NCBI GenBank assembly: GCA_964057225.1
Contig: OZ059895.1
Location: 13,144,001 to 13,208,000, forward strand
Source of the DNA: Auanema rhodensis
Lineage: Eukaryota; Animalia; Nematoda
Direction: 5' to 3'
DNA length: 64,000 nt
The translations under genes and the position numbers were made by a program. A model generated the notes under the pieces. The model had not been told where the DNA came from, did not search any database, and saw only the letters and a list, made by a program, of their open reading frames with translations. Of this stretch, positions 4,256 through 16,463 are shown piece by piece. The first letter of the stretch is position 1. The number at the start of each line of letters is the position of its first letter.

Positions 4256-4374
4256 AGCTTACGGCACCCGGGTTTCCCAAGCCGTCTCCGATCCAAGTAC
4301 TAACCGGGCCCAACGTTGCTTGACTTGCCAGATCGGACGGGATGGCGTACTTTCAACGTGGTATGGTCGTAAGC
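4256..4374 (-). rRNA. 5S ribosomal RNA (left neighbour of the retroelement)
   Basis: 119-nt copy; its 5' end lies ~227 bp from the 5' LTR. Confidence 0.95.
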
Positions 4375-4597: not shown

Positions 4598-4601
4598 AGG
4601 T
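4598..4601 (+). other. Target-site duplication AGGT (second copy at 16277-16280)
   Basis: Uninterrupted units read aagatga-AGGT-tcataaac; the left flank ends in AGGT and the right flank starts with AGGT. Confidence 0.9.
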
Positions 4602-4986
4602 TGTTCCATACATAACTTATAGAGAAGGCGGTTGACTACGTCAACCGACTTTAGTTTAATCAAATAAAATAAGAAACTAGAATTCGGAAGCTTTTTAGAA
4701 AAGATTCCACGGAATAAGGTGGAACGTAATTCTTTTTATACAAATTCATTCACTTTTTACATTCTATAGTTTGCTATATAAACCCGTAGAAAACACACTA
4801 AGGAGATCTTCTATCATGTAGTTTTAGACTTTAACTTTACTTGTTTGTAGTTTATAACATTTCCTATTGTAGTTTTCTCTATATAATAAAACGGTTGCTA
4901 ATTTAACTACTTGTTGAACAATGAAACCCTTGCACAAAATCCATCTGAAAACCCTAGTCGGAACCCTAGGGCAATCAAATGGAACG
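4602..4986 (+). repeat. 5' LTR (385 bp)
   Basis: TGTTCCAT...ATGGAACG. Identical to 15892-16276 except 4687 G/A and 4841 T/C. TATATAAA at 4775-4782, AATAAA at 4885-4890. Confidence 0.96.
4775..4782 (+). promoter_or_regulatory. Putative LTR TATA box
   Basis: TATATAAA in mid-LTR, upstream of an AATAAA, consistent with a U3-R-U5 layout. Confidence 0.55.
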
Positions 4987-5004
4987 TGGAGGTTCCACCG
5001 AGAT
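4987..5004 (+). promoter_or_regulatory. Primer-binding site, tRNA-Gln
   Basis: TGGAGGTTCCACCGAGAT directly after the 5' LTR is the reverse complement of ATCTCGGTGGAACCT-CCA, the 3' end of metazoan tRNA-Gln. Confidence 0.88.
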
Positions 5005-5570
5005 CCGTCTATAACGGACGGATCTCTATGGACCATTTCCGCTACTTTTCGAAATCCTTTTTGTATTCAAAATCTTTTATCCTTCATATCAAAACTTTAT
5101 ATAATATTCAAACTTCTATTTCTAAAATTGTCAATTTTATCTCCTAAATGTTACCCGAATTTTATCTTTACTTCATTCTTTCTTATTTTATTTCATACAT
5201 ATATATTAAAAGCATATAATGCATGAAAACTCTTTTGAAACAAACAAATCAAAACATTTATTGTCATAATCTATTTATAAAATACTTTAAAAACATTTAT
5301 TCATTATCATTTATAAGACATTTTCAAAAAAAAAAAAAAAAACTACCAAAACATATTCTTGAATCATCTATTTTTTTTTCTCTTCGTAAAACTTCCTATT
5401 CATAAACCATAAACTATTCTATTTATTCAAGCCCGTGAGAAACAATACCAGACTTTCTCGGGACATCGTGCGGAGGCGTACACTTTTGATATAAGACGCG
5501 CATTCATTTGAAATTAACCCTTTTTCGGTCCTATATGAGAATTACAAAACGTAATATTTTTTTGAAGTTA

Positions 5571-5870
5571 AGTGGTCCCACCTAGCAGAGCCCAGGGGAG
5601 CAGAAGCAACGTTAAAAGGGAACGTCTTCTGCGGGTTCGCTTAGGCACGAGAAGCCTGTGTACCTGATCTTGTCCATGACTGAAAAGGCACAATACACAG
5701 ACCACTGTCTCGCATCTCATGCCTCTTCGTGAGATAAGAACCCGGTCCTTTGCTAAGGTCACACGTAGTTGCGGACTCGTGTATGAACCTGACCAGGCTA
5801 TTCTCCGACTAGAGACCCGCTGCAGGCTGGCCCCCTGACAGAAATAGGAGTCGCGCATACCAACCCCATA
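5571..5870 (+). other. GC-rich structured leader element (candidate packaging/dimerisation signal or IRES)
   Basis: GC-rich island within an AT-rich leader, with nested complementary stems visible by eye (agtggt/accact, gagccc/gggttc, gcagaag/cttctgc, ctgtgta/tacacag, atctcatg/cgtgagat, ggtca/tgacc). Function is inferred. Confidence 0.5.
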
Positions 5871-5942
5871 TTGTTTCTTACGTTTGTATATATAAGCTCA
5901 GTCTTCGTTGGTTAATAATTTCCTTCCAGGAAACCAACAAAA

Positions 5943-8900
5943 ATGGCTGACACAGCGAATCAAAACCCTCCGCCGGGAAATAATACCCAAAACACTACAA
6001 ATAGCGAAGAGAATACCCAGACAGTGGAAGCAGCACTGCATAGAAACCAAAGAAAAAGAGGACCACCGGATGCATTTCGACCACATGCGAAACATCCGAA
6101 AACTAACGCTAAATCAAAGAAATTACCCCCCATTCCGGGCACACCGCTAACCGCTAAAAAACTTTATACAACTGCTATCAAAACTACTAGGCATGCGATA
6201 AGTTTGAATAAAAATAAAGCAACATCTAGTAAATCCACGCCCAAACGCTCTTCTCACTCTCCAAAAACAGTCATTGACACCGGCACTAACACTTATCTTC
6301 CAAATCACACTTCTCCTCAACGTCCTATTCAAACCGAAAACGCGGAAATCCTCACTTCTCCTATTCCTAAAAATTCCCCCTCTTCCACTGATCAATCTTT
6401 GCATGGGCACTCTCTGTCTCCTGTCTCTTCTTCGTCAGACAATAACATAAATTTGACTTCGAATGTTACAGAGCAGAGAAGTCGCCCTCAAATGGCAAAT
6501 CAGATGGAGCAAGATAATCCTCCTATCGCGAGAGCCAACAATGTTTCTATTCGCCATCATAAACCTACGCTTTATGATGGATCCGTACCATTCAATCTCT
6601 ACATGCAAAGACTAGAAGGATATTTTGATGCACTTCAAGTCCCTATTGCCGAGAGACTTTCCCATCTTTATCTACTTCTTGGAACGGACAGAGCCGCCGA
6701 AGCTCTGCAAACTATACCAGCAGAAGACTTACGCCAAGGATGGAACCACGTCAAACGTCTACTATCGGAGAAATTACAACCTCCAGAAAAGAGGGATGCT
6801 GCATTTACGAAACTCACCCATTTGAAACAAGGAGAAAACGAAACGGTACAAAATTTCGCGCAACGTTGCAGAAATCTCGCTTACGAATCATGCAACATGG
6901 ACTCAACAGCTGACGAAAGAATACTACGTGTTTCGTTCTTAGGAGGACTAAGAAAGACTTTAAGAACACACGTCAATAACCGCAGCCCTATAACCTTCGA
7001 TGCAGCTGTAACTATCGCCGAAACAGTAGAAGCCGACGAAGATCCGTCGCTACATATCAACAACTTGATCAAAAACGTGGAACAATTAGAGATCAATAAC
7101 GGTCTCATAAACCACATGAGAACCTCACAACAGGACAAAACCCATGACGAATCACAAACACACCAACCAAGAACGTTTTATGGAAATCAATCAAGACCAC
7201 AACGCCCACAGGAACAATGGAATCAAAGAAGAGGAGGATACCGCCCACCAAGATACCAGGACGACCGACAAAATAACCGTCCCAACTTCAGACAAGATAA
7301 CAGAAACAATGGATACCAACGAGGATACAACAGTTATCGTAGTCCTCAACGGTACGATAGATACAACGATCGATACGATAACAGAAGAAACGACCGATAT
7401 GATAACAGAGGAAACGATCGACATGAGCACAGAGGAAACGACCGATACAACCGCGGAAACTATCACGATCGCGGATTCCAACAAAGAAATCACAACACTT
7501 TGCATGGACAACATAACAGGTACAGAGATCGTACCAGAAGCCCTAGCGTTCGTTTTCACGTTAACAAAGTGGAGAAAGAAACAGGAAAAACAAGGAAGAC
7601 ACTTCCGTTCATACCGCTATTCTTATCCGTCATCGCTTTATCTTTGATACCCTGTCAGGCAGACAATACCTATCAACTCTGCATCGGCAAACGAGGAGGT
7701 ATTTTCCTCGAACCACCTCGACCAACAACCTGCTCAGACTATGCACACAAAGACGGAGTCAAGATAAAAACAGTGGAACTATTTGCAGAAAATATGAACT
7801 ACAAAGAATGGGAAGCATGGAAATGCTCCAAGGAAATCTATAAAGCTTGCGCCTACGACTTATTCTTCATCAGGGAAAACAACCTCACATTACTCCGAAT
7901 AGAACCAGCCACTCCACAAGAATGCAAAACAGCCATTCAAGAGAGACGACACACGGATAACAACCTCAATCGGGAAGCTCCAGGACTATTCAAAACTCCT
8001 ATGCCTACCAATACTCAATCAAAATCGTTCTGGTCATCCTCTTGCACAACAAAATCAAGATTCACATTAGAAAGAGGAATGATGACTAGCCTACACGATG
8101 ACACTATAATCTCCGACTTGTTTATCAACACTGAGGGATGCACTAAACAACAAGGTGTATGCAACACCACAAACGCAGTTATCACATGGATCCCACCCAA
8201 TAACCATCGAAATTGTGATTACACAACTTTAGGAAAATTCGAAGCACTAATCAATAATGATACTGTTATAATCTCGGAAATACAAGGAGCATTCATCCTC
8301 AACGACGACACGCCAGACCCTATTGCTACAAGATGTATGAATAAGAACATCTATTCAACTGACAGCGGTACGTACATTTCCATCAACGAGTTAAAACCCC
8401 GACGTCAAAAGAGAAAAGCACCACAGGAGTACCCTACGAGATTCTTCAACATCACTATCTATCAATCACTTCGCCTCACAGACAGTTCTACAGGATTACT
8501 ACCAATGTACCAAACATATCGAAATCGTAAAAGACTGGATAGTACCTATAACCTTATAGACTACCTCAAAACATCTAGCGTACACATAGGGCTCATCAAA
8601 TTCCTACAACTGGAAGCATCAAAACTAAAATATCGACTCTTATGGCACAACTACACCGATATCAACATGGTTATCCTACACACACTCGCAGAAGCCGAGA
8701 TTCGACTTTCCACAGAAATCGCCATTGAACATCTATTACCATCAGAAATTACGGCAAAACTCAGCAAGCAAATCACTATCAGCGACTTTGCCACACGATT
8801 ACTAAACCACAAAGGCGACTATCTCGAACGAGCAAGACAAATAGCACTCGAAATAGCACAGACACCTACAACTCTGGCTACAGGAGAAACTATTCCATCG

Positions 8901-11900
8901 TTGGAGGAATACTTATACCAACTTTACCCACCCAGAATGACAAAACTGCCTAGATCACGTACAGACACACAGGTCTACACCCAGATAGACGAAATACAAA
9001 AATTTCTCGAATACCTAGCTCAAAACAATCGTCTAAGCCGGATATCAAAAGAGGAAAGAGAAGCAGAAAACAAGAAATGGGCTGATCTCACAAGACAGTC
9101 AAATTCTTCAGCGATTACCTTTCCCAACTATACTCTCATCTTCAACGGACACGCACAAAACTACGGATTCCCGAAAACACTACCTACAGCCAGACCCATC
9201 ACGGAAGAAGACAGCTTATTATTTCAACAAACATATCTTCAGCTCATTGAGTCACCGGGTGCTAGTCCTACGACAACCACTACCACAACTACTACAACTA
9301 CAACAACCACTAGAACCCCTGCAACCACAGTTGATCCGACAACTACTACTTATCGGACACCTTTACCTCAATTCACAACCACACCAAGGAGATATCATTA
9401 TTACCAGAGTACAACAACTCCAGTAACTCCACCACCACGTCTTCTCACTACCACACCTCGCAGAGAACCTCCTAGGACAATTCCCACAACTCGGATTACC
9501 ACAAAACGAGCAACAACAACTCAACCGGTAGAGGAAATTAAATCTCACACAGGATCACAAGCACACCTCAATTTCCTACGAACACGAGCAGATATTATTC
9601 AAAAATACGATGATCAACTACGACAACAAGATACAAGGTCTCACCTCCAATACTCTACGTCAAAACTCGAGGAGGAAATCTTACAAGCTTTCCAAATAAC
9701 AAAGAAAAGCGTTTGCAGAATGCAAAATAAACAGCTACTTACCTGGTGGGCAATCCTGCAAATTAATCCGACCATAGGAATTCGCACTATGCTTCGTCGA
9801 CAGGACATTTCAGCCAAATTCGTCGGAGAACATCTCATCTACGTCATGCCATGCACCCCTGTACAAATAACACATGTATATTCGGATCACAAACGAGACG
9901 ATAAATGTTACCTGGAGACGCCTGTAGACACGGAACATCACGGCAAACTATTCATTACACCAGGATCAAGAGATTTGACACCATATGCTCACATCATAGC
10001 ATGCGATATGGCTACATCAGATCCCTACAAAATAAACAATCAATGGATGAAAGATAATTCAACATTGAATGTAACTCACTTCTCATTTTCGGATGAACTC
10101 ACATCTGTAAAAATTGATCACATTAAGTTCAACAATTCCAACATATTTTCAAACCTCACGGAGTCAACATTTCCAATGGCACTGGCTATCTCCTACGGAT
10201 CGAGCTTAGCATCCTTACAAGCCACTCTGCCAGGAAAGCTGAAACCAGTCTTCAAACAGTCTGGATTCTCTGATCTAAATCCAATAGGCATTATAGGAGG
10301 AACAGTTGGAACGACATTAATGTTAGCAGATAACATATCAAACAACGCAGAAAAACAAATCACAAATTTCTTCGAATATGTAGGAGAATCAATTACAGCA
10401 TGGATACTAAGGACACTAGCCATTATTGGAGGAATTCTCGTCGCAATAGGACTTATAACTGCTACCATCTGGGCATTAAAAATATATGCATGTACCACAA
10501 GGATACCAATCAATCAAATAACATTCAAAGAAGAAGAAGAAGAACCAAGGCGAGAAAATAAAGAAATCGAACTTCAGCAATTACAACCACTGAATAAATC
10601 TCAACAAAACAAATTCTATTCAAGAATCTCCCGATACGATCCCGACGCTCCACTATCAGACAACGACTTTCTAGCCTATCTACCACGATACGCCATGAAA
10701 GAATCAAGGATTAACTACATCGGAGGATCACGACTACCTTTCGTACCTCTCTCCATCCACAATCAGATCTTTACTGCTTTATGGGACACAGGAGCTTCTA
10801 TATCATATATGAAGGAAAGCACATTTCAACAACTACCGGCAGCAACGATGGTTGGTGAAAAGACAACAGCTATCGTAGCAAACAAATCACGGTTTTCCTT
10901 CCTGGGCTACACAAGACTTCCAATTGTTATTGGAAAAACAGAGATTGAGCACAAAATACTGATTTCTGCCAACAACCACTGCCCAGCACCTATCTTATTA
11001 GGAATAGACTTTATAGAAGCCCTCAGCAAAATAGGAATAAATACATCATTGCGACCACTTCAGAATTCATTGCTAATCGGAGATACAATAGTACCTCTAG
11101 CACAAGACTACTCACCGTGGACCGAGAACCACACGATAGCTCATGTAGTAAGCCTGGAAACTAAACAGTTTTACCCAGGAGAAACCAGATCGCTCACGTT
11201 GGAAGTAGACGATCCAGCATCATACGCACAAGCTTTTATAAGAAGTTCACAACGAATAGGAAAAATGACTTTCGCCCCTACAACTTTCACGCCAACAGGA
11301 TACGGGATTCAGATATTCGCTACAAATATCTCACCCGAAACAATCAAAATTAAAACAAATCAAGGAATCGGAACTGCTTACGCTATCCCAAAAGATATCA
11401 AAGAACAAAAAGGACAATACGTCCCACCGGAAGCAAGATGGGAAGAACAACTACCATACTTCCCAGACGACTTCATAAAGGATCTCGACGTAACAAACAC
11501 CATCTTCACCCAATTGGAAAGACAAGAATTAAAGAAAATAGTACTTAGAAATAAGGAAGCTTTCTTGAACGAGGATCGCAATATCGGACTTTTTAAAGGA
11601 CCAGTGGAACATAATATACCTATCATACCAGGAAAATTTCCATCATTTCAAATCACATACAGGATCCCTCTAACTCAACAAGAAGAAGTCGAAAAACAGG
11701 TGGAGGAAATGCTCGAACAAGGTATAATAGAACCATCAATTTCTATTACCACAAGTCCCGTTATACTCGTCAAAAAGAAGGACAAAACATACCGTTTTGT
11801 TACGGATTTTCGAGCATTAAATGCCATAACACTAAAGCAGATATACGTCATTTCAAACATACAAGATATTCTCGATCTAGCAGCAGGAGCATGCATCTTC

Positions 11901-14798
11901 ACTAACTTTGATTTGGTATCAGGATTCTTCCAAATACCTCTGCGTAAAGAAGATCGACATTTAACAGCATTTACTACAACTAGTGGTACATATCAATACT
12001 GTCGAATGCCCATGGGACTCTGTGGAGCCCCACATACATTCCAAAACGCAGTACGGTACCTACAACAACATGTACGCTGCAAACTCTTCGTATATCTAGA
12101 CGATCTTCTGCTTATATCAGAATCAACCACACAACACCTTCAAGATATCGAAGAAGTTTTGAGAGTAGCAATAGAGCTAGGATTCAAAATTAATCTGAAG
12201 AAATGCACCTTTGGACAAAGAGAAGTCAAGTTTCTCGGATTTATAGTCGGATATGAGGGAATAAAACCGGACCCTCAGAAAATTAAAGCCATCAGAGACT
12301 ACCCCAGACCAAAGTCAACAACAGGAGTCAGAGCTTTCATGGGCGTCGTTAACTACTTTCGAAGATTCATCAAAAATGCCGCGGGAATTGCCTCACCTCT
12401 CTACGACCTCACAAAAAAGGATAAAGCTTTCACATGGGGAGACAAAGAAGAAAAATCTTTCCAACACCTGAAGAAAGCCCTTTGTCAAGCACCGGTTCTT
12501 CAGGCACCTAGAGCAAAACGACCATACGTAGTTGAAAGCGACGGAAGCATAATTGCAGTAGGAGCAGTTCTATTGCAATCTGCGGATGATCAAGAACCAT
12601 TGCACCCAATAGCTTTCGCTAGCCGTAAACTAAACAAAGCAGAAAGGAACTACCCCCCGATTGAGATCGAAGCCTTAGCCCTAACTTTCGCAGTTCATCA
12701 GTTTCGCACCTACATCTTAGGAGCACCGATCAAAATCATAACCGATCATAGACCCTTAACTAGCCTTATGACAAGAAAAGACCTCATAGGAAGACTAGCC
12801 AAATTTCAAATAGTACTCCAAGAGTATGATATTGAAATTATCTATCGCCCAGGACGTCTTAATAGCGTTTGTGACGCATTATCAAGATACTTCGAAGACG
12901 AAATCAACGAAGCGAAGGAAAGAAAGAAGAAAACGAAAGAATCTCCCACGCATCAAATCTCTACTATTACAACTATCACGGACCTTCGGACAATTCAAGA
13001 GGAAACAGAATGGATCATGGAAACAAAAGAAAAGATTCAGAACAAAACAGCAGGAAGGCAACTAACAGATCGATATATAGTTCAAAATAATATTCTCTAT
13101 GCAAAGCCAAAAACAGCATTCCAAACACCTCGAGCCGTTCTACCCAATGATCCAACAATTACTACAGCAATAATTGATAAGTTTCATAAGGACCCATTAC
13201 TAGGAGCTCATCTAGAAATCAACAAAACACATGACTCAATTCTACGCCGTTATACATGGACAGGAATGCAAGAAGATATCACCAACTACGTCAACAGATG
13301 TCTTCAGTGCGCAAAAAGGAAAAATAACCCGCATGAAGCAACGGTGGAACCCATGAGAAACTTTCCCACCGTTTCACAACCTTGGGAAAGAGTTCACATG
13401 GACATTCTCGGACCACTACCACGAACACAAAACGGGAACAGATATATCTTATCAATACAGGACGCGTTCTCCAAATGGATAATAGCAACACCATTATTAA
13501 GACAAACATCAGAAGAAATCATAACAGCAATTAAGAAAAACCTGTTCTTTGTTTTCGGACCACCAAAAAGGATCATAACGGACAACGGATCCAATTTTGT
13601 TTCTCACGAATTCAAAACAATGTGCGAACAACTAGGTTCCGAGCATCATACAACTATGCCATATTACAAGAATGCAAATGGACAAGTGGAACGACTACAC
13701 AGAACACTAGAAGAAGCACTAACGTCGTACGTAAATACGGAACAGGACAATTGGGATGATATACTACCTAAGATAGTATTCACACTCAACAGGCTACCTA
13801 ATGCCACAACTCGCACACCGCCCTACGATTGTATCTTTGGTCAGGCAGCGCGACTACCAATCGACCACAACCTGGACACTCCCGCACCCACTCTCAAACC
13901 CACAGGAGATTTACATGAGAAAATATACGAAAGGATAACAAGGAACAATGAGAAGATGAAGAAGAAATACGACGAGGCACACAAGATACAAGAACGAGAA
14001 CTCTACGTGGATAACAGAGCTCTCGTCAAACGGGCAAAGCCCACCAACAAACTGCAAGCAGTCAGTGATGGACCGTACCTCATAAAAGAAATAAATAAAA
14101 ATAATGTCATATTAGCAGATGACGACGGGAATAGAATACGGGCTCATAAGAATAATATAAGATACTTTCCACCCGATGACAATAACATCGAGGAAAGCGA
14201 GCACGGCAGAAATGACGCGGGATCCGCTATTTATAGCAACAGGTCCCGGCACGATCAGGTCAATACGCGCGCTCAGAACAACGGTCAAGCCACGCCCCCA
14301 ATTTCTGATTCGGACAGCGATAACGAGGAGGAGTTCTACGAACAAAGCCGACCTATAATAACAACTAAAGAAACAATAACACCGCAGGAAGATACGTTGG
14401 AAAGACAACAAGAAAGTTATCAATCGGAATCTGGACTAGATACAGCAGACAAGACATCTACGAACAAAGAAGAAAACAACCAATTCCAACAATTGGTCGA
14501 CAAAATTGGAGAAGAAACAAGACAAGAGCTCTACGAAGAAAGACAAAAAGAGTTACCTACAATCAAAAGATGGAGCTCAGCTCTCAAATTGGCACTCGGT
14601 TTAGAAGACAAAAATCCGATTACTCCTCCAAAACCGTTTCACGTACCAATAAGGTACAACAGCGTGATACCCCCTTTAAAACCTAAAAGTAGGCTTACAC
14701 GCTCTCAGATACCTGATGCCCATATCAATTTACCAAACACATCGGTTGAACGAAAGAAACGACCTTCAACAGTGATAGGAGGACCAACAACTATCTAA
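5943..14798 (+). CDS. Gag-Env-Pol polyprotein (2951 aa): capsid, class III fusion glycoprotein, aspartic protease, reverse transcriptase, RNase H, integrase
   Basis: Single ORF. Gag motif LKQGENETVQNF; signal peptide aa ~554-573; TM aa ~1487-1512; LWDTGA; YLDD; RNase H ESDGS...EIEALA...TDH; integrase H-H-CxxC, D-D35-E and GPY. Confidence 0.96.
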   Translation: MADTANQNPPPGNNTQNTTNSEENTQTVEAALHRNQRKRGPPDAFRPHAKHPKTNAKSKKLPPIPGTPLTAKKLYTTAIKTTRHAISLNKNKATSSKSTPKRSSHSPKTVIDTGTNTYLPNHTSPQRPIQTENAEILTSPIPKNSPSSTDQSLHGHSLSPVSSSSDNNINLTSNVTEQRSRPQMANQMEQDNPPIARANNVSIRHHKPTLYDGSVPFNLYMQRLEGYFDALQVPIAERLSHLYLLLGTDRAAEALQTIPAEDLRQGWNHVKRLLSEKLQPPEKRDAAFTKLTHLKQGENETVQNFAQRCRNLAYESCNMDSTADERILRVSFLGGLRKTLRTHVNNRSPITFDAAVTIAETVEADEDPSLHINNLIKNVEQLEINNGLINHMRTSQQDKTHDESQTHQPRTFYGNQSRPQRPQEQWNQRRGGYRPPRYQDDRQNNRPNFRQDNRNNGYQRGYNSYRSPQRYDRYNDRYDNRRNDRYDNRGNDRHEHRGNDRYNRGNYHDRGFQQRNHNTLHGQHNRYRDRTRSPSVRFHVNKVEKETGKTRKTLPFIPLFLSVIALSLIPCQADNTYQLCIGKRGGIFLEPPRPTTCSDYAHKDGVKIKTVELFAENMNYKEWEAWKCSKEIYKACAYDLFFIRENNLTLLRIEPATPQECKTAIQERRHTDNNLNREAPGLFKTPMPTNTQSKSFWSSSCTTKSRFTLERGMMTSLHDDTIISDLFINTEGCTKQQGVCNTTNAVITWIPPNNHRNCDYTTLGKFEALINNDTVIISEIQGAFILNDDTPDPIATRCMNKNIYSTDSGTYISINELKPRRQKRKAPQEYPTRFFNITIYQSLRLTDSSTGLLPMYQTYRNRKRLDSTYNLIDYLKTSSVHIGLIKFLQLEASKLKYRLLWHNYTDINMVILHTLAEAEIRLSTEIAIEHLLPSEITAKLSKQITISDFATRLLNHKGDYLERARQIALEIAQTPTTLATGETIPSLEEYLYQLYPPRMTKLPRSRTDTQVYTQIDEIQKFLEYLAQNNRLSRISKEEREAENKKWADLTRQSNSSAITFPNYTLIFNGHAQNYGFPKTLPTARPITEEDSLLFQQTYLQLIESPGASPTTTTTTTTTTTTTTRTPATTVDPTTTTYRTPLPQFTTTPRRYHYYQSTTTPVTPPPRLLTTTPRREPPRTIPTTRITTKRATTTQPVEEIKSHTGSQAHLNFLRTRADIIQKYDDQLRQQDTRSHLQYSTSKLEEEILQAFQITKKSVCRMQNKQLLTWWAILQINPTIGIRTMLRRQDISAKFVGEHLIYVMPCTPVQITHVYSDHKRDDKCYLETPVDTEHHGKLFITPGSRDLTPYAHIIACDMATSDPYKINNQWMKDNSTLNVTHFSFSDELTSVKIDHIKFNNSNIFSNLTESTFPMALAISYGSSLASLQATLPGKLKPVFKQSGFSDLNPIGIIGGTVGTTLMLADNISNNAEKQITNFFEYVGESITAWILRTLAIIGGILVAIGLITATIWALKIYACTTRIPINQITFKEEEEEPRRENKEIELQQLQPLNKSQQNKFYSRISRYDPDAPLSDNDFLAYLPRYAMKESRINYIGGSRLPFVPLSIHNQIFTALWDTGASISYMKESTFQQLPAATMVGEKTTAIVANKSRFSFLGYTRLPIVIGKTEIEHKILISANNHCPAPILLGIDFIEALSKIGINTSLRPLQNSLLIGDTIVPLAQDYSPWTENHTIAHVVSLETKQFYPGETRSLTLEVDDPASYAQAFIRSSQRIGKMTFAPTTFTPTGYGIQIFATNISPETIKIKTNQGIGTAYAIPKDIKEQKGQYVPPEARWEEQLPYFPDDFIKDLDVTNTIFTQLERQELKKIVLRNKEAFLNEDRNIGLFKGPVEHNIPIIPGKFPSFQITYRIPLTQQEEVEKQVEEMLEQGIIEPSISITTSPVILVKKKDKTYRFVTDFRALNAITLKQIYVISNIQDILDLAAGACIFTNFDLVSGFFQIPLRKEDRHLTAFTTTSGTYQYCRMPMGLCGAPHTFQNAVRYLQQHVRCKLFVYLDDLLLISESTTQHLQDIEEVLRVAIELGFKINLKKCTFGQREVKFLGFIVGYEGIKPDPQKIKAIRDYPRPKSTTGVRAFMGVVNYFRRFIKNAAGIASPLYDLTKKDKAFTWGDKEEKSFQHLKKALCQAPVLQAPRAKRPYVVESDGSIIAVGAVLLQSADDQEPLHPIAFASRKLNKAERNYPPIEIEALALTFAVHQFRTYILGAPIKIITDHRPLTSLMTRKDLIGRLAKFQIVLQEYDIEIIYRPGRLNSVCDALSRYFEDEINEAKERKKKTKESPTHQISTITTITDLRTIQEETEWIMETKEKIQNKTAGRQLTDRYIVQNNILYAKPKTAFQTPRAVLPNDPTITTAIIDKFHKDPLLGAHLEINKTHDSILRRYTWTGMQEDITNYVNRCLQCAKRKNNPHEATVEPMRNFPTVSQPWERVHMDILGPLPRTQNGNRYILSIQDAFSKWIIATPLLRQTSEEIITAIKKNLFFVFGPPKRIITDNGSNFVSHEFKTMCEQLGSEHHTTMPYYKNANGQVERLHRTLEEALTSYVNTEQDNWDDILPKIVFTLNRLPNATTRTPPYDCIFGQAARLPIDHNLDTPAPTLKPTGDLHEKIYERITRNNEKMKKKYDEAHKIQERELYVDNRALVKRAKPTNKLQAVSDGPYLIKEINKNNVILADDDGNRIRAHKNNIRYFPPDDNNIEESEHGRNDAGSAIYSNRSRHDQVNTRAQNNGQATPPISDSDSDNEEEFYEQSRPIITTKETITPQEDTLERQQESYQSESGLDTADKTSTNKEENNQFQQLVDKIGEETRQELYEERQKELPTIKRWSSALKLALGLEDKNPITPPKPFHVPIRYNSVIPPLKPKSRLTRSQIPDAHINLPNTSVERKKRPSTVIGGPTTI
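6492..7571 (+). other. gag: Gag domain (capsid plus Arg/Asn/Asp/Tyr-rich nucleocapsid-like tail)
   Basis: KPTLYDGSVPFNLYMQRLEGYF..., MHR-like LKQGENETVQNFAQRCRNLA and TFDAAVTIAETVE, typical of Ty3/Gypsy capsids; no CCHC knuckle. Confidence 0.85.
7602..10493 (+). other. env: Envelope glycoprotein domain, class III fusogen-like (type I membrane protein)
   Basis: Signal peptide LPFIPLFLSVIALSLIPCQA|D; Cys-rich ectodomain with many NxS/T sequons; furin site RRQKR (8400-8414); gB-like CRMQNKQL..W...INP...ISAKFVG...PCTPV...CY..P; TM WILRTLAIIGGILVAIGLITATIWAL. Confidence 0.85.
10722..11100 (+). other. Retropepsin aspartic protease domain
   Basis: ALWDTGASISY (catalytic Asp codon at 10785) and C-terminal ILLGIDF. 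Confidence 0.93.
11610..12890 (+). other. pol: Reverse transcriptase and RNase H domains
   Basis: SPVILVKKKD, RFVTDFRALN, DLVSGFFQI, MPMGLCGAP, YLDDLL (12093), KCTF, FLGF; then ESDGS, PIAFASR, EALA, TDHRPL, N..CDALSR. Confidence 0.96.
13180..14170 (+). other. Integrase (HHCC, DDE core, GPY/F region)
   Basis: FH...GAH...CLQC, PWERVHMDILGP, ITDNGSNF, NGQVERLHRTL, DGPY. Confidence 0.95.
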
Positions 14799-15002
14799 AA
14801 CAAGTTTGAAAATTCATTTTTTTATCATAATTACTTTATTTATACTTTTGCATCATTTTCCCATTTTTTCTCATCAAACAAACAACAATAATCAGTCATT
14901 CAAGTTTTCGAAATTTGATTTTTTTTTTGTCATCAATCACACTATCTCTCTAAAAATTCTACCTTCTCTGTTCAAAAAAAAAAAAAAAAAAACCTGCTTT
15001 GC

Positions 15003-15695
15003 ATGGAGCTATATAAGCTCAAAAACACCTCAAGCAGAAAAAAAAAATCCTCCGAATTCGACAAGATGTCGCTCAACCTTCCACCTCTACCCTGCGAGAC
15101 ACCCATCGAAATGATCAAGGAAAAATGGATCAACATCCATTCACTCCAAATTGAGCTACAAGAGCTGGAGAAAGACAACCCCAAGAAACTAAAGATTCTT
15201 CGGTCCTTCTCGGAGAATCTATCCAGAGTGACTCTATTGATAGAAACTCTGGAAAGGTTACAATGTTTATGTAACCATGAAGAAGACGAAATGGCAAAAA
15301 TGGCAAAGAACTGGTTGTCAGCCACCGTCCGCACCAAGTTCACCATCCGCAAACTGCGTCAAGAATTAGGCTATTCAATCCCAGAATACGAAGGCAGCGC
15401 TGATCTACTCCCGAGATGGGCCGCAGAAGAAATCTACAAGAGTTGGACAGAAGAGAGTTTAAACAAGTCCGCAAACCAGTCAATAAGGAAAGCTGGAGAA
15501 CGAGTTGGCCAAGCATTGAAGATTTTAATGGCAACTGGCGCCACCACCCAGAACCAGAAAGATATGAAAAAGAAGATATGCAACCAGACGACAGATTTGC
15601 TGACAGATCTCAGTCTCTACCACACATGGACCGTCGCTGGGCAGCATACAGCAACCAACTTTCAAATGGGACAAATCAATGAGGAGGAAGGATGA
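15003..15695 (+). CDS. Accessory ORF2 of unknown function (230 aa; a start at ATG 15066 would give 209 aa), predicted helical/coiled-coil
   Basis: Open 693-bp frame with coding-like composition between AT-rich poly-A/poly-T linkers inside the element; no signal peptide or TM; AATAAA at 15723. Confidence 0.7.
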   Translation: MELYKLKNTSSRKKKSSEFDKMSLNLPPLPCETPIEMIKEKWINIHSLQIELQELEKDNPKKLKILRSFSENLSRVTLLIETLERLQCLCNHEEDEMAKMAKNWLSATVRTKFTIRKLRQELGYSIPEYEGSADLLPRWAAEEIYKSWTEESLNKSANQSIRKAGERVGQALKILMATGATTQNQKDMKKKICNQTTDLLTDLSLYHTWTVAGQHTATNFQMGQINEEEG

Positions 15696-15891
15696 AAACT
15701 GCTAAGAAAGAGGTGATGAATCAATAAAACATTTTATTTTTATTTTTTTTTTTATTTTATCTATTCACTCTATTATTCACTTACCTATTCTATTATTCCT
15801 ATTCTTGTTTCAATTTTTTTTTGTTTCAAAAAAAAACACGAAATCTAATTTCTTATAGCTGAGGTCAGCTAACTTTTTTTCCTATAAGGCA

Positions 15892-16276
15892 TGTTCCATA
15901 CATAACTTATAGAGAAGGCGGTTGACTACGTCAACCGACTTTAGTTTAATCAAATAAAATAAGAAACTAGAATTCGAAAGCTTTTTAGAAAAGATTCCAC
16001 GGAATAAGGTGGAACGTAATTCTTTTTATACAAATTCATTCACTTTTTACATTCTATAGTTTGCTATATAAACCCGTAGAAAACACACTAAGGAGATCTT
16101 CTATCATGTAGTTTTAGACTTTAACTTTACCTGTTTGTAGTTTATAACATTTCCTATTGTAGTTTTCTCTATATAATAAAACGGTTGCTAATTTAACTAC
16201 TTGTTGAACAATGAAACCCTTGCACAAAATCCATCTGAAAACCCTAGTCGGAACCCTAGGGCAATCAAATGGAACG
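15892..16276 (+). repeat. 3' LTR (385 bp)
   Basis: Direct repeat of 4602-4986 with 2 substitutions; poly(A) signal AATAAA at 16175-16180. Confidence 0.96.
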
Positions 16277-16463
16277 AGGTTCATAAACTACTAATTTATA
16301 ACTGTAATATAGAAATAAGATTGAACATATTTTGATGCCTTGGGTTGAGCTATCTAAGTAAAACTGCTGGAAAATTAAAAACATTTGTTACGGAAGAGAT
16401 AAAATTGAAAATCAGCTGCATTGAGTACTTTCAACGTGGTATGATCGTTAAAAAAATTTGAAA

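Follow-up and report, generated by a model that had tools for sequence, protein, structure and literature searches.

The window, a 64,000-nucleotide stretch of Auanema rhodensis DNA, contains an 11,675-bp Ty3/gypsy retroelement (4602-16276) whose gag, env, and pol regions follow one another in a single open reading frame, and we propose that the encoded polyprotein likely makes two passes through the ER membrane and is likely cleaved, on the cytosolic face, by a protease that the element itself encodes. The layout itself is not new. The preliminary description had presented it as potentially undescribed, a novelty that falls by a condition that the description itself had set, since the same order has been published (PMC13524379 and PMC6431247). 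What we add is support for the membrane-threading model and a testable processing model for a published layout. Among the literature passages that we searched, none shows how such polyproteins are processed or whether particles infect, and none contains such a processing model; an intact young copy with four predicted cut sites makes the processing and particle questions testable.

Three ATG-started ORFs of at least 150 aa are present in the window, and the longest (5943-14798, + strand) runs for 2951 aa without a stop codon, as had been stated. At the local base composition, the chance that the 912 Env codons would be free of stops is ∼1e-22. The order Gag, signal, Env, membrane anchor, and PR-RT-RH-IN in one frame, also put forward earlier, is borne out, for Gag, Env, and PR-RT-RH-IN, by the succession of Pfam domains: Retrotrans_gag (aa 248-337), Monjiviricetes_fusion (PF24664, aa 1233-1376, E 1e-19, above the cut-off), protease (aa 1599-1694), RT (aa 1943-2102), RNase H (aa 2165-2295), and integrase (aa 2404-2575), with an additional match to Glycoprotein_B (aa 1233-1313) below the Pfam cut-off. 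Gag (aa 1-552; 5943-7598, +) comprises a low-complexity N-terminus, a capsid region, and a C-terminus rich in Arg, Asn, Gln, Asp, and Tyr, and a CCHC knuckle, looked for by motif, is absent from it. The Gag domain was correctly recognized in the preliminary description, but its start was placed at Met184 and the ORF begins 183 codons earlier. An overlapping ORF of 167 codons (7144-7647), for which Pfam gave nothing, coincides with the repetitive C-terminal part of Gag and was set aside as a by-product.

Pol (10722-14798, +) contains a protease (DTG), an RT (YLDD), an RNase H, an integrase (HHCC, D-D-E, GPY), and a low-complexity tail; the motifs that we take to be catalytic in the protease, RT, RNase H, and integrase are all present. 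Its best relative of solved structure is Ty3 Gag-Pol (E 9e-110). The RT motif is YLDD, not YVDN, the BEL/Pao marks Peptidase_A17 and DUF1758/1759/5641 are absent in the Pfam scan of the polyprotein, and Env does not come after Pol. Thirteen slippery-type heptamers occur in the ORF, none of which is required for the model.

Whereas the coding part of the element had been well described, its LTRs, target duplication, primer site, 230-codon ORF, and 5S flanks had been missed. The element displays the LTRs, target duplication, and tRNA primer site of Metaviridae. The 5' LTR (4602-4986, +; TG...CG) and the 3' LTR (15892-16276, +) are each 385 bp long and differ at two sites over this length, and they are bordered by a 4-bp target-site duplication, AGGT (left copy, 4598-4601; right copy, 16277-16280; both +), defined by comparison with empty sites. 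The spacer motif into which the element inserted has 109 matches in the window, and all but one (108) are empty sites with one copy, and the empty-site contigs jump 11,679 bases, i.e., 11,675 + 4. The element is intact, young, and recently inserted. A 5-bp duplication is compatible with the joint as well, at the cost of the TG with which both LTRs begin; the LTRs end in CG instead of the usual CA, despite the clean 4-bp duplication. No clear polypurine tract was seen in the sequence inspected ahead of the 3' LTR (before 15892).

The primer-binding site (4987-4998, +) is of the tRNA-Gln type, and its reverse complement is the 12-mer Gln_UUG_CUG given for the Caenorhabditis elements Clat_errantivirus_4 and Ctro_errantivirus_1 in supplementary file 1 of PMC13524379, a comparison that took in 30 of the 36 nematode rows of that file. 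The 5' leader (4999-5942, +) contains eight upstream ATGs and a match to a nematode-type splice acceptor that ends at 5929. An accessory ORF of 230 codons (15003-15695, +) lies 3' of pol; it has no Pfam match at E 0.1, and its Atlas matches are all under 0.9. Its position is that of the second half of the Cer1 RNA-export protein CERV (PMC10309623).

The flanks are a 5S rDNA array, and the insertion lies in a 5S rDNA spacer. Rfam finds 11 matches to 5S rRNA in the first 20 kb; the window as a whole holds 63 full-length 5S matches, together with 110 that are restricted to the first 28-33 bases of 5S, and array units of 529 and 399 bp fill the whole window outside the element. The nearest 5S gene of the host array (4256-4374, - strand; Rfam RF00001, 108 bits) has its 5' end ∼225 bp from the element, which lies upstream of it. 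This distance, and the fact that a single event is at hand, give no support to the idea that the element targets Pol III start sites as Ty3 does. Titles and the beginnings of abstracts yielded no literature on 5S-targeting nematode LTR elements, and the core of the spliced-leader gene was not found in the array spacer in a search with two motifs.

The Env ectodomain (aa 574-1490; 7662-10412, +) is predicted to be a class III fusogen of the gB/Monjiviricetes type, an assignment that is based jointly on the Pfam match, sequence matches to gB, and local fold matches, and not on a fit of the whole chain. The earlier suggestion that the middle region is a viral fusogen is strengthened by the PF24664 match and the predicted gB-like folds. 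An AlphaFold2 model of aa 574-1486, built from a 108-row alignment, has a mean pLDDT of 65 and a pTM of 0.53, with 319 of its 913 residues under a pLDDT of 50; its confident parts are a beta-rich region (aa ∼574-800) and a long helix plus beta region (aa ∼1205-1385). The PDB matches listed for this model are all herpesvirus gB (best E 3e-10), with low TM-scores of 0.17-0.25, and matches in a viral fold library are to gB and to glycoproteins of the rhabdo-like, nyami-, chu-, and xinmo-types (best E 2e-16), Nyavirus G among them.

The class III fold is divided by a low-confidence insert of ∼400 residues (8350-9550; aa ∼805-1200), inside which lie a furin-like RQKR at aa 821 and a Thr/Pro-rich stretch. 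Homologues have spacers here that are anywhere from tens to several hundred residues long, and this part of Env could vary because it binds a receptor or shields the protein. The ectodomain had been called Cys-rich, an overstatement for 14 Cys in 911 aa (1.5%), arranged in two blocks (10 at aa 580-798 and 4 at aa 1258-1354). It had also been called glycosylated, which is a prediction from 12 N-glycosylation sequons, at a density of 1.3 per 100 aa versus 1.1 in Gag and 0.7 in Pol.

A hydropathy scan of the whole protein detected only two strong hydrophobic segments, aa 553-571 and aa 1491-1509, in agreement with the internal signal and TM anchor that had been described. The first falls in the predicted internal signal sequence (aa 553-573; 7599-7661, +; hydropathy peak 2.08), with basic residues ahead of it; the second is the predicted transmembrane anchor (aa 1491-1509; 10413-10469, +; hydropathy peak 2.35), with basic residues behind it. 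In both cases, basic residues are more numerous on the predicted cytosolic side. An equivalent hydrophobic stretch lies ahead of Env in 55 of the 58 proteins examined, this element's included, versus 10 of 170 control windows. Based on these sequence features, the polyprotein probably has Gag in the cytosol, Env in the lumen, and Pol in the cytosol, which supports the topology that had been suggested.

Behind the anchor, a predicted cytosolic linker (aa 1510-1593; 10470-10721, +) contains two copies, at aa 1523 and 1590, of a putative protease motif, [VIL]-N-x-[VIL], which was chosen post hoc after inspection of the borders in homologues. Among the 33 proteins with a protease within 150 aa of the anchor, the motif occurs within 60 aa after the anchor in 20 (3.8 expected from shuffling) and in the 40 aa before the protease in 18 (3.0 expected), these two windows being able to overlap and the motif counts being inflated by the shared descent of the proteins. 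It is also found in the 50 aa before the signal in 10 of 26 Gag-linked proteins (1.4 expected). Lumenal control windows gave 9/33 (6.7 expected) and 4/33 (5.6 expected), and the window after the signal, also a lumenal control, gave 1/26 (2.1 expected). The motif is missing from the post-anchor window in 13 of the 33 proteins and from the pre-signal window in 16 of the 26. This polyprotein has 11 matches, four of them at aa 372, 540, 1523, and 1590 and seven elsewhere. The location of the motif just before the protease suggests self-cleavage, and [VIL]-N-x-[VIL] is likely a cleavage site of the element's protease; our literature search returned no paper linking the motif to this protease.

In the model that we propose, the unspliced RNA would be translated into Gag, after which the internal signal would route Env to the lumenal side of the ER, with a signal peptidase cut near aa 573. 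The anchor would then halt transfer, such that PR-RT-RH-IN would be made in the cytosol on the Env tail. The element's protease would cut at the [VIL]-N-x-[VIL] motifs at aa 372, 540, 1523, and 1590, taking Gag off the signal stub, trimming the Env tail to ∼15 residues, and freeing Pol, and Env may be cleaved at aa 824 by a protease of the furin type. In the last and least supported step, capsids would wrap themselves in membrane that carries Env, and class III fusion would bring them into other cells. As had been suggested, such a polyprotein would supply Gag, Env, and Pol in equal amounts, and it may keep Pol tethered for packaging and may be infectious.

Sacco et al. 2022 reportedly described non-canonical nematode endogenous retroviruses with one continuous gag-env-pro-pol ORF, an Env said to resemble nyamivirus glycoproteins, and small accessory ORFs. 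Chary and Hayashi 2026 (PMC13524379), who attribute to Sacco et al. 2022 the nematode ERVs in which ENV and POL are swapped, documented the GAG-ENV-POL order with a gB-type Env in Nematoda, Bryozoa, and Platyhelminthes. Our element has in common with the nematode GAG-ENV-POL "ancient errantiviruses" of that study a Ty3/gypsy Pol, a predicted gB-type Env, and the gag-env-pol order, as well as LTRs of a few hundred bp. In the available text of PMC13524379, the terms "polyprotein," "in-frame," and "fused" were not found, nor was a processing model.

The giant gypsy elements Burro/GYPSM1 of planarians have env in the same frame as its neighbors, after gag and ahead of pol (Arkhipova and Yushenova 2019, PMC6431247). 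Burro, like the element studied here, encodes one gag-env-pol polyprotein, and its env is similar to mononegavirus fusion glycoproteins; however, it exceeds 30 kb and has a polyprotein of ∼4,900 aa with CCHC knuckles and cargo domains (PMC6431247), whereas our element measures 11.7 kb and encodes 2951 aa with neither a knuckle nor a recognized cargo. Atlas virus and other nematode belpaoviruses likewise encode an envelope protein as part of a single polyprotein uninterrupted by stops, but in Atlas virus, Pol is of the BEL/Pao type (YVDN) and Env is C-terminal with a class II fold (PMC9094657), in contrast to the YLDD motif, the lack of BEL/Pao Pfam domains, and the predicted class III Env in the middle of our polyprotein. 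In nematodes, equal stoichiometry without recourse to a frameshift is nothing unusual, since no stop separates gag from pol in Cer1 (PMC10309623) and the Gag, Pol, and Env of Atlas virus are made as one polyprotein, in that order (PMC9094657).

A HMMER search with Env returned 263 matches at E ≤0.001, the best 150 of which were used; the homologue set consists of 151 distinct sequences from the matches listed, predicted proteins only. Among these matches, an anchor was called in at least 85 of the 151 homologues and is followed in the same protein by a protease or RT in at least 41; a Gag match precedes Env in at least 23, and at least 10 have Gag, Env-anchor, and Pol all together, while many of the remaining homologues are fragments. 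Most named homologues are gene models, in which splices or frameshifts could be hidden. Ten homologues were looked up, namely, six Caenorhabditis gene models and four proteins of 2338-2535 aa, and the latter occupy most of contigs of 7.9-11.3 kb, which leaves scant room for introns. A length-limited search through 4023 candidates identified three relatives, which come from Diploscapter, Aphelenchoides/Aphelenchus avenae, and Acrobeloides. When viral contigs were scanned with the polyprotein as query, seven pattern matches and no relative emerged. Four homologues (P0003, P0004, P0013, and P0017) show two or three protease-like motifs or matches behind the Env anchor, and P0013 also has two integrase zinc-finger stretches; some of the four may be gene models spanning nested or duplicated pieces.

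The RT-RH tree was built from 23 rows (18 env-bearing gypsy-type and 5 BEL/Pao), leaving aside env-less gypsy elements, the reference sequences of PMC13524379, and the Diploscapter protein P0002. In this tree, the element is sister to an env-pol protein of C. japonica (100/99), within a wider group that includes C. brenneri, C. nigoni, and Acrobeloides proteins (95/87), and the BEL/Pao rows separate at 100/99. The RT thus appears to group with nematode gag-env-pol elements, whose gB-type Env and gag-env-pol order also match those predicted here. Among the matches listed, the closest named relatives are all nematode, the nearest named ones being rhabditid elements, a pattern that by itself would point to a rhabditid nematode as the likely host. 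Seven long homologues among the same matches have no Pol match behind the anchor, and all six that were scanned are BEL/Pao elements with Peptidase_A17. These six (P0047, P0049, P0060, P0070, P0085, and P0092) have the same Env family, with signal and anchor, at the C-terminus of a BEL/Pao polyprotein, so that one fusogen family occupies two positions in two retroelement superfamilies.

The polyprotein might be processed as we propose while Env acts only in cell-to-cell spread within one animal, from soma to germ line, or as a membrane anchor for assembly, with no transmission between animals, and we give this reading slightly less than an even chance. It agrees with the nematode origin of all the closest named relatives and with the finding that pol and env of these elements follow host lineages, which points to mostly vertical inheritance (PMC13524379). 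Nevertheless, spread between animals is compatible with all our data, and the presence of the same Env family in BEL/Pao elements (six of six tested, with Peptidase_A17) means that the Env gene has moved between element lineages. A bolder view, which we hold only tentatively and consider rather unlikely, is that of a flavivirus-like retrovirus in which the membrane-threaded polyprotein, with protease sites at its two cytosolic membrane borders, would let Env trimers gather the tethered proteases and thereby tie the release of Gag and Pol to assembly on membrane that bears Env, and in which enveloped particles would pass between worms. The present copy, being intact and young, would then offer a natural system in which to study this. 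Should such polyproteins indeed be processed into infectious particles, they would constitute a second route to an enveloped reverse-transcribing virus, unlike the spliced env of retroviruses and errantiviruses.

Splicing or a second start could also place Gag-Pol and Env mostly on different messages despite an ORF that is continuous in the DNA, full threading being then a minor outcome. Cer1, a single-ORF element that uses splicing for CERV (PMC10309623), provides a precedent, and the element has acceptor matches at 9813, inside Env, and just before the first ATG, as well as eight loose donors in the ORF. However, according to splice-site patterns that follow the C. elegans consensus, the ORF contains no strict donor, versus 4.0 in synonymous shuffles (1.3% of shuffles are as low), and one strict acceptor versus 6.8 expected (0.3% as low), while the looser donors (8 versus 13.1 expected) do not depart significantly; no strict donor was found along the sense strand of the whole element. 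Furthermore, the only acceptor in the ORF lies upstream of the anchor, so it cannot be used to join Gag to Pol without the anchor, and separate messages would not require that, even in distant relatives, Env be joined in frame and without stops to both of its neighbors. We consider this explanation improbable, and the signal, motif, and splice evidence jointly favor an unspliced message, a polyprotein that crosses the ER membrane twice, liberation of Env by signal peptidase, and liberation of Gag and Pol by the viral protease. The acceptor-like site in 5914-5945 ends 13 bases before the first ATG, behind the eight upstream ATGs, and cis- or trans-splicing there could yield a message for translation distinct from the packaged RNA. 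In one presumed-RNA run, four short pieces matched, three of them in a Thr-coding repeat, and these have no bearing on expression; the runs listed as containing the element included no RNA run.

It is extremely improbable that the fusion arose by misassembly, or that the gene of a viral glycoprotein landed in frame, just once, inside an ordinary gag-pol element: a long tandem array is hard to assemble and the window holds one copy of the element, but base composition is equal across gag, env, and pol, at least half of the element's sampled words are present in nine DNA runs of three studies (one run possibly being the window's own source), a ∼9% diverged contig (run X4) crosses the Gag-signal-Env junction, and the layout, which the preliminary description had asked to be checked for this possibility, recurs in the at least 41 of 151 homologues with Env-anchor-Pol among the matches listed and is published (PMC13524379, PMC6431247). 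The Env-Pol junction is crossed by none of the 28 contig pieces listed (3658 further pieces exist), and none of the 15 joints listed skips Env. In three DNA runs, contigs are less deep in pol than in gag-env, contig depth being a quantity that cannot rank gene parts. In run X4, contigs that differ by 7-10% and are deeper cover the leader, gag, and env (5432-10322), whereas the pieces over pol, among the matches listed, are all near-identical to the window. The diverged contigs carry three single-base insertions near 8392-8398 that total one codon, and they may represent a more numerous sister family, possibly one without most of pol.
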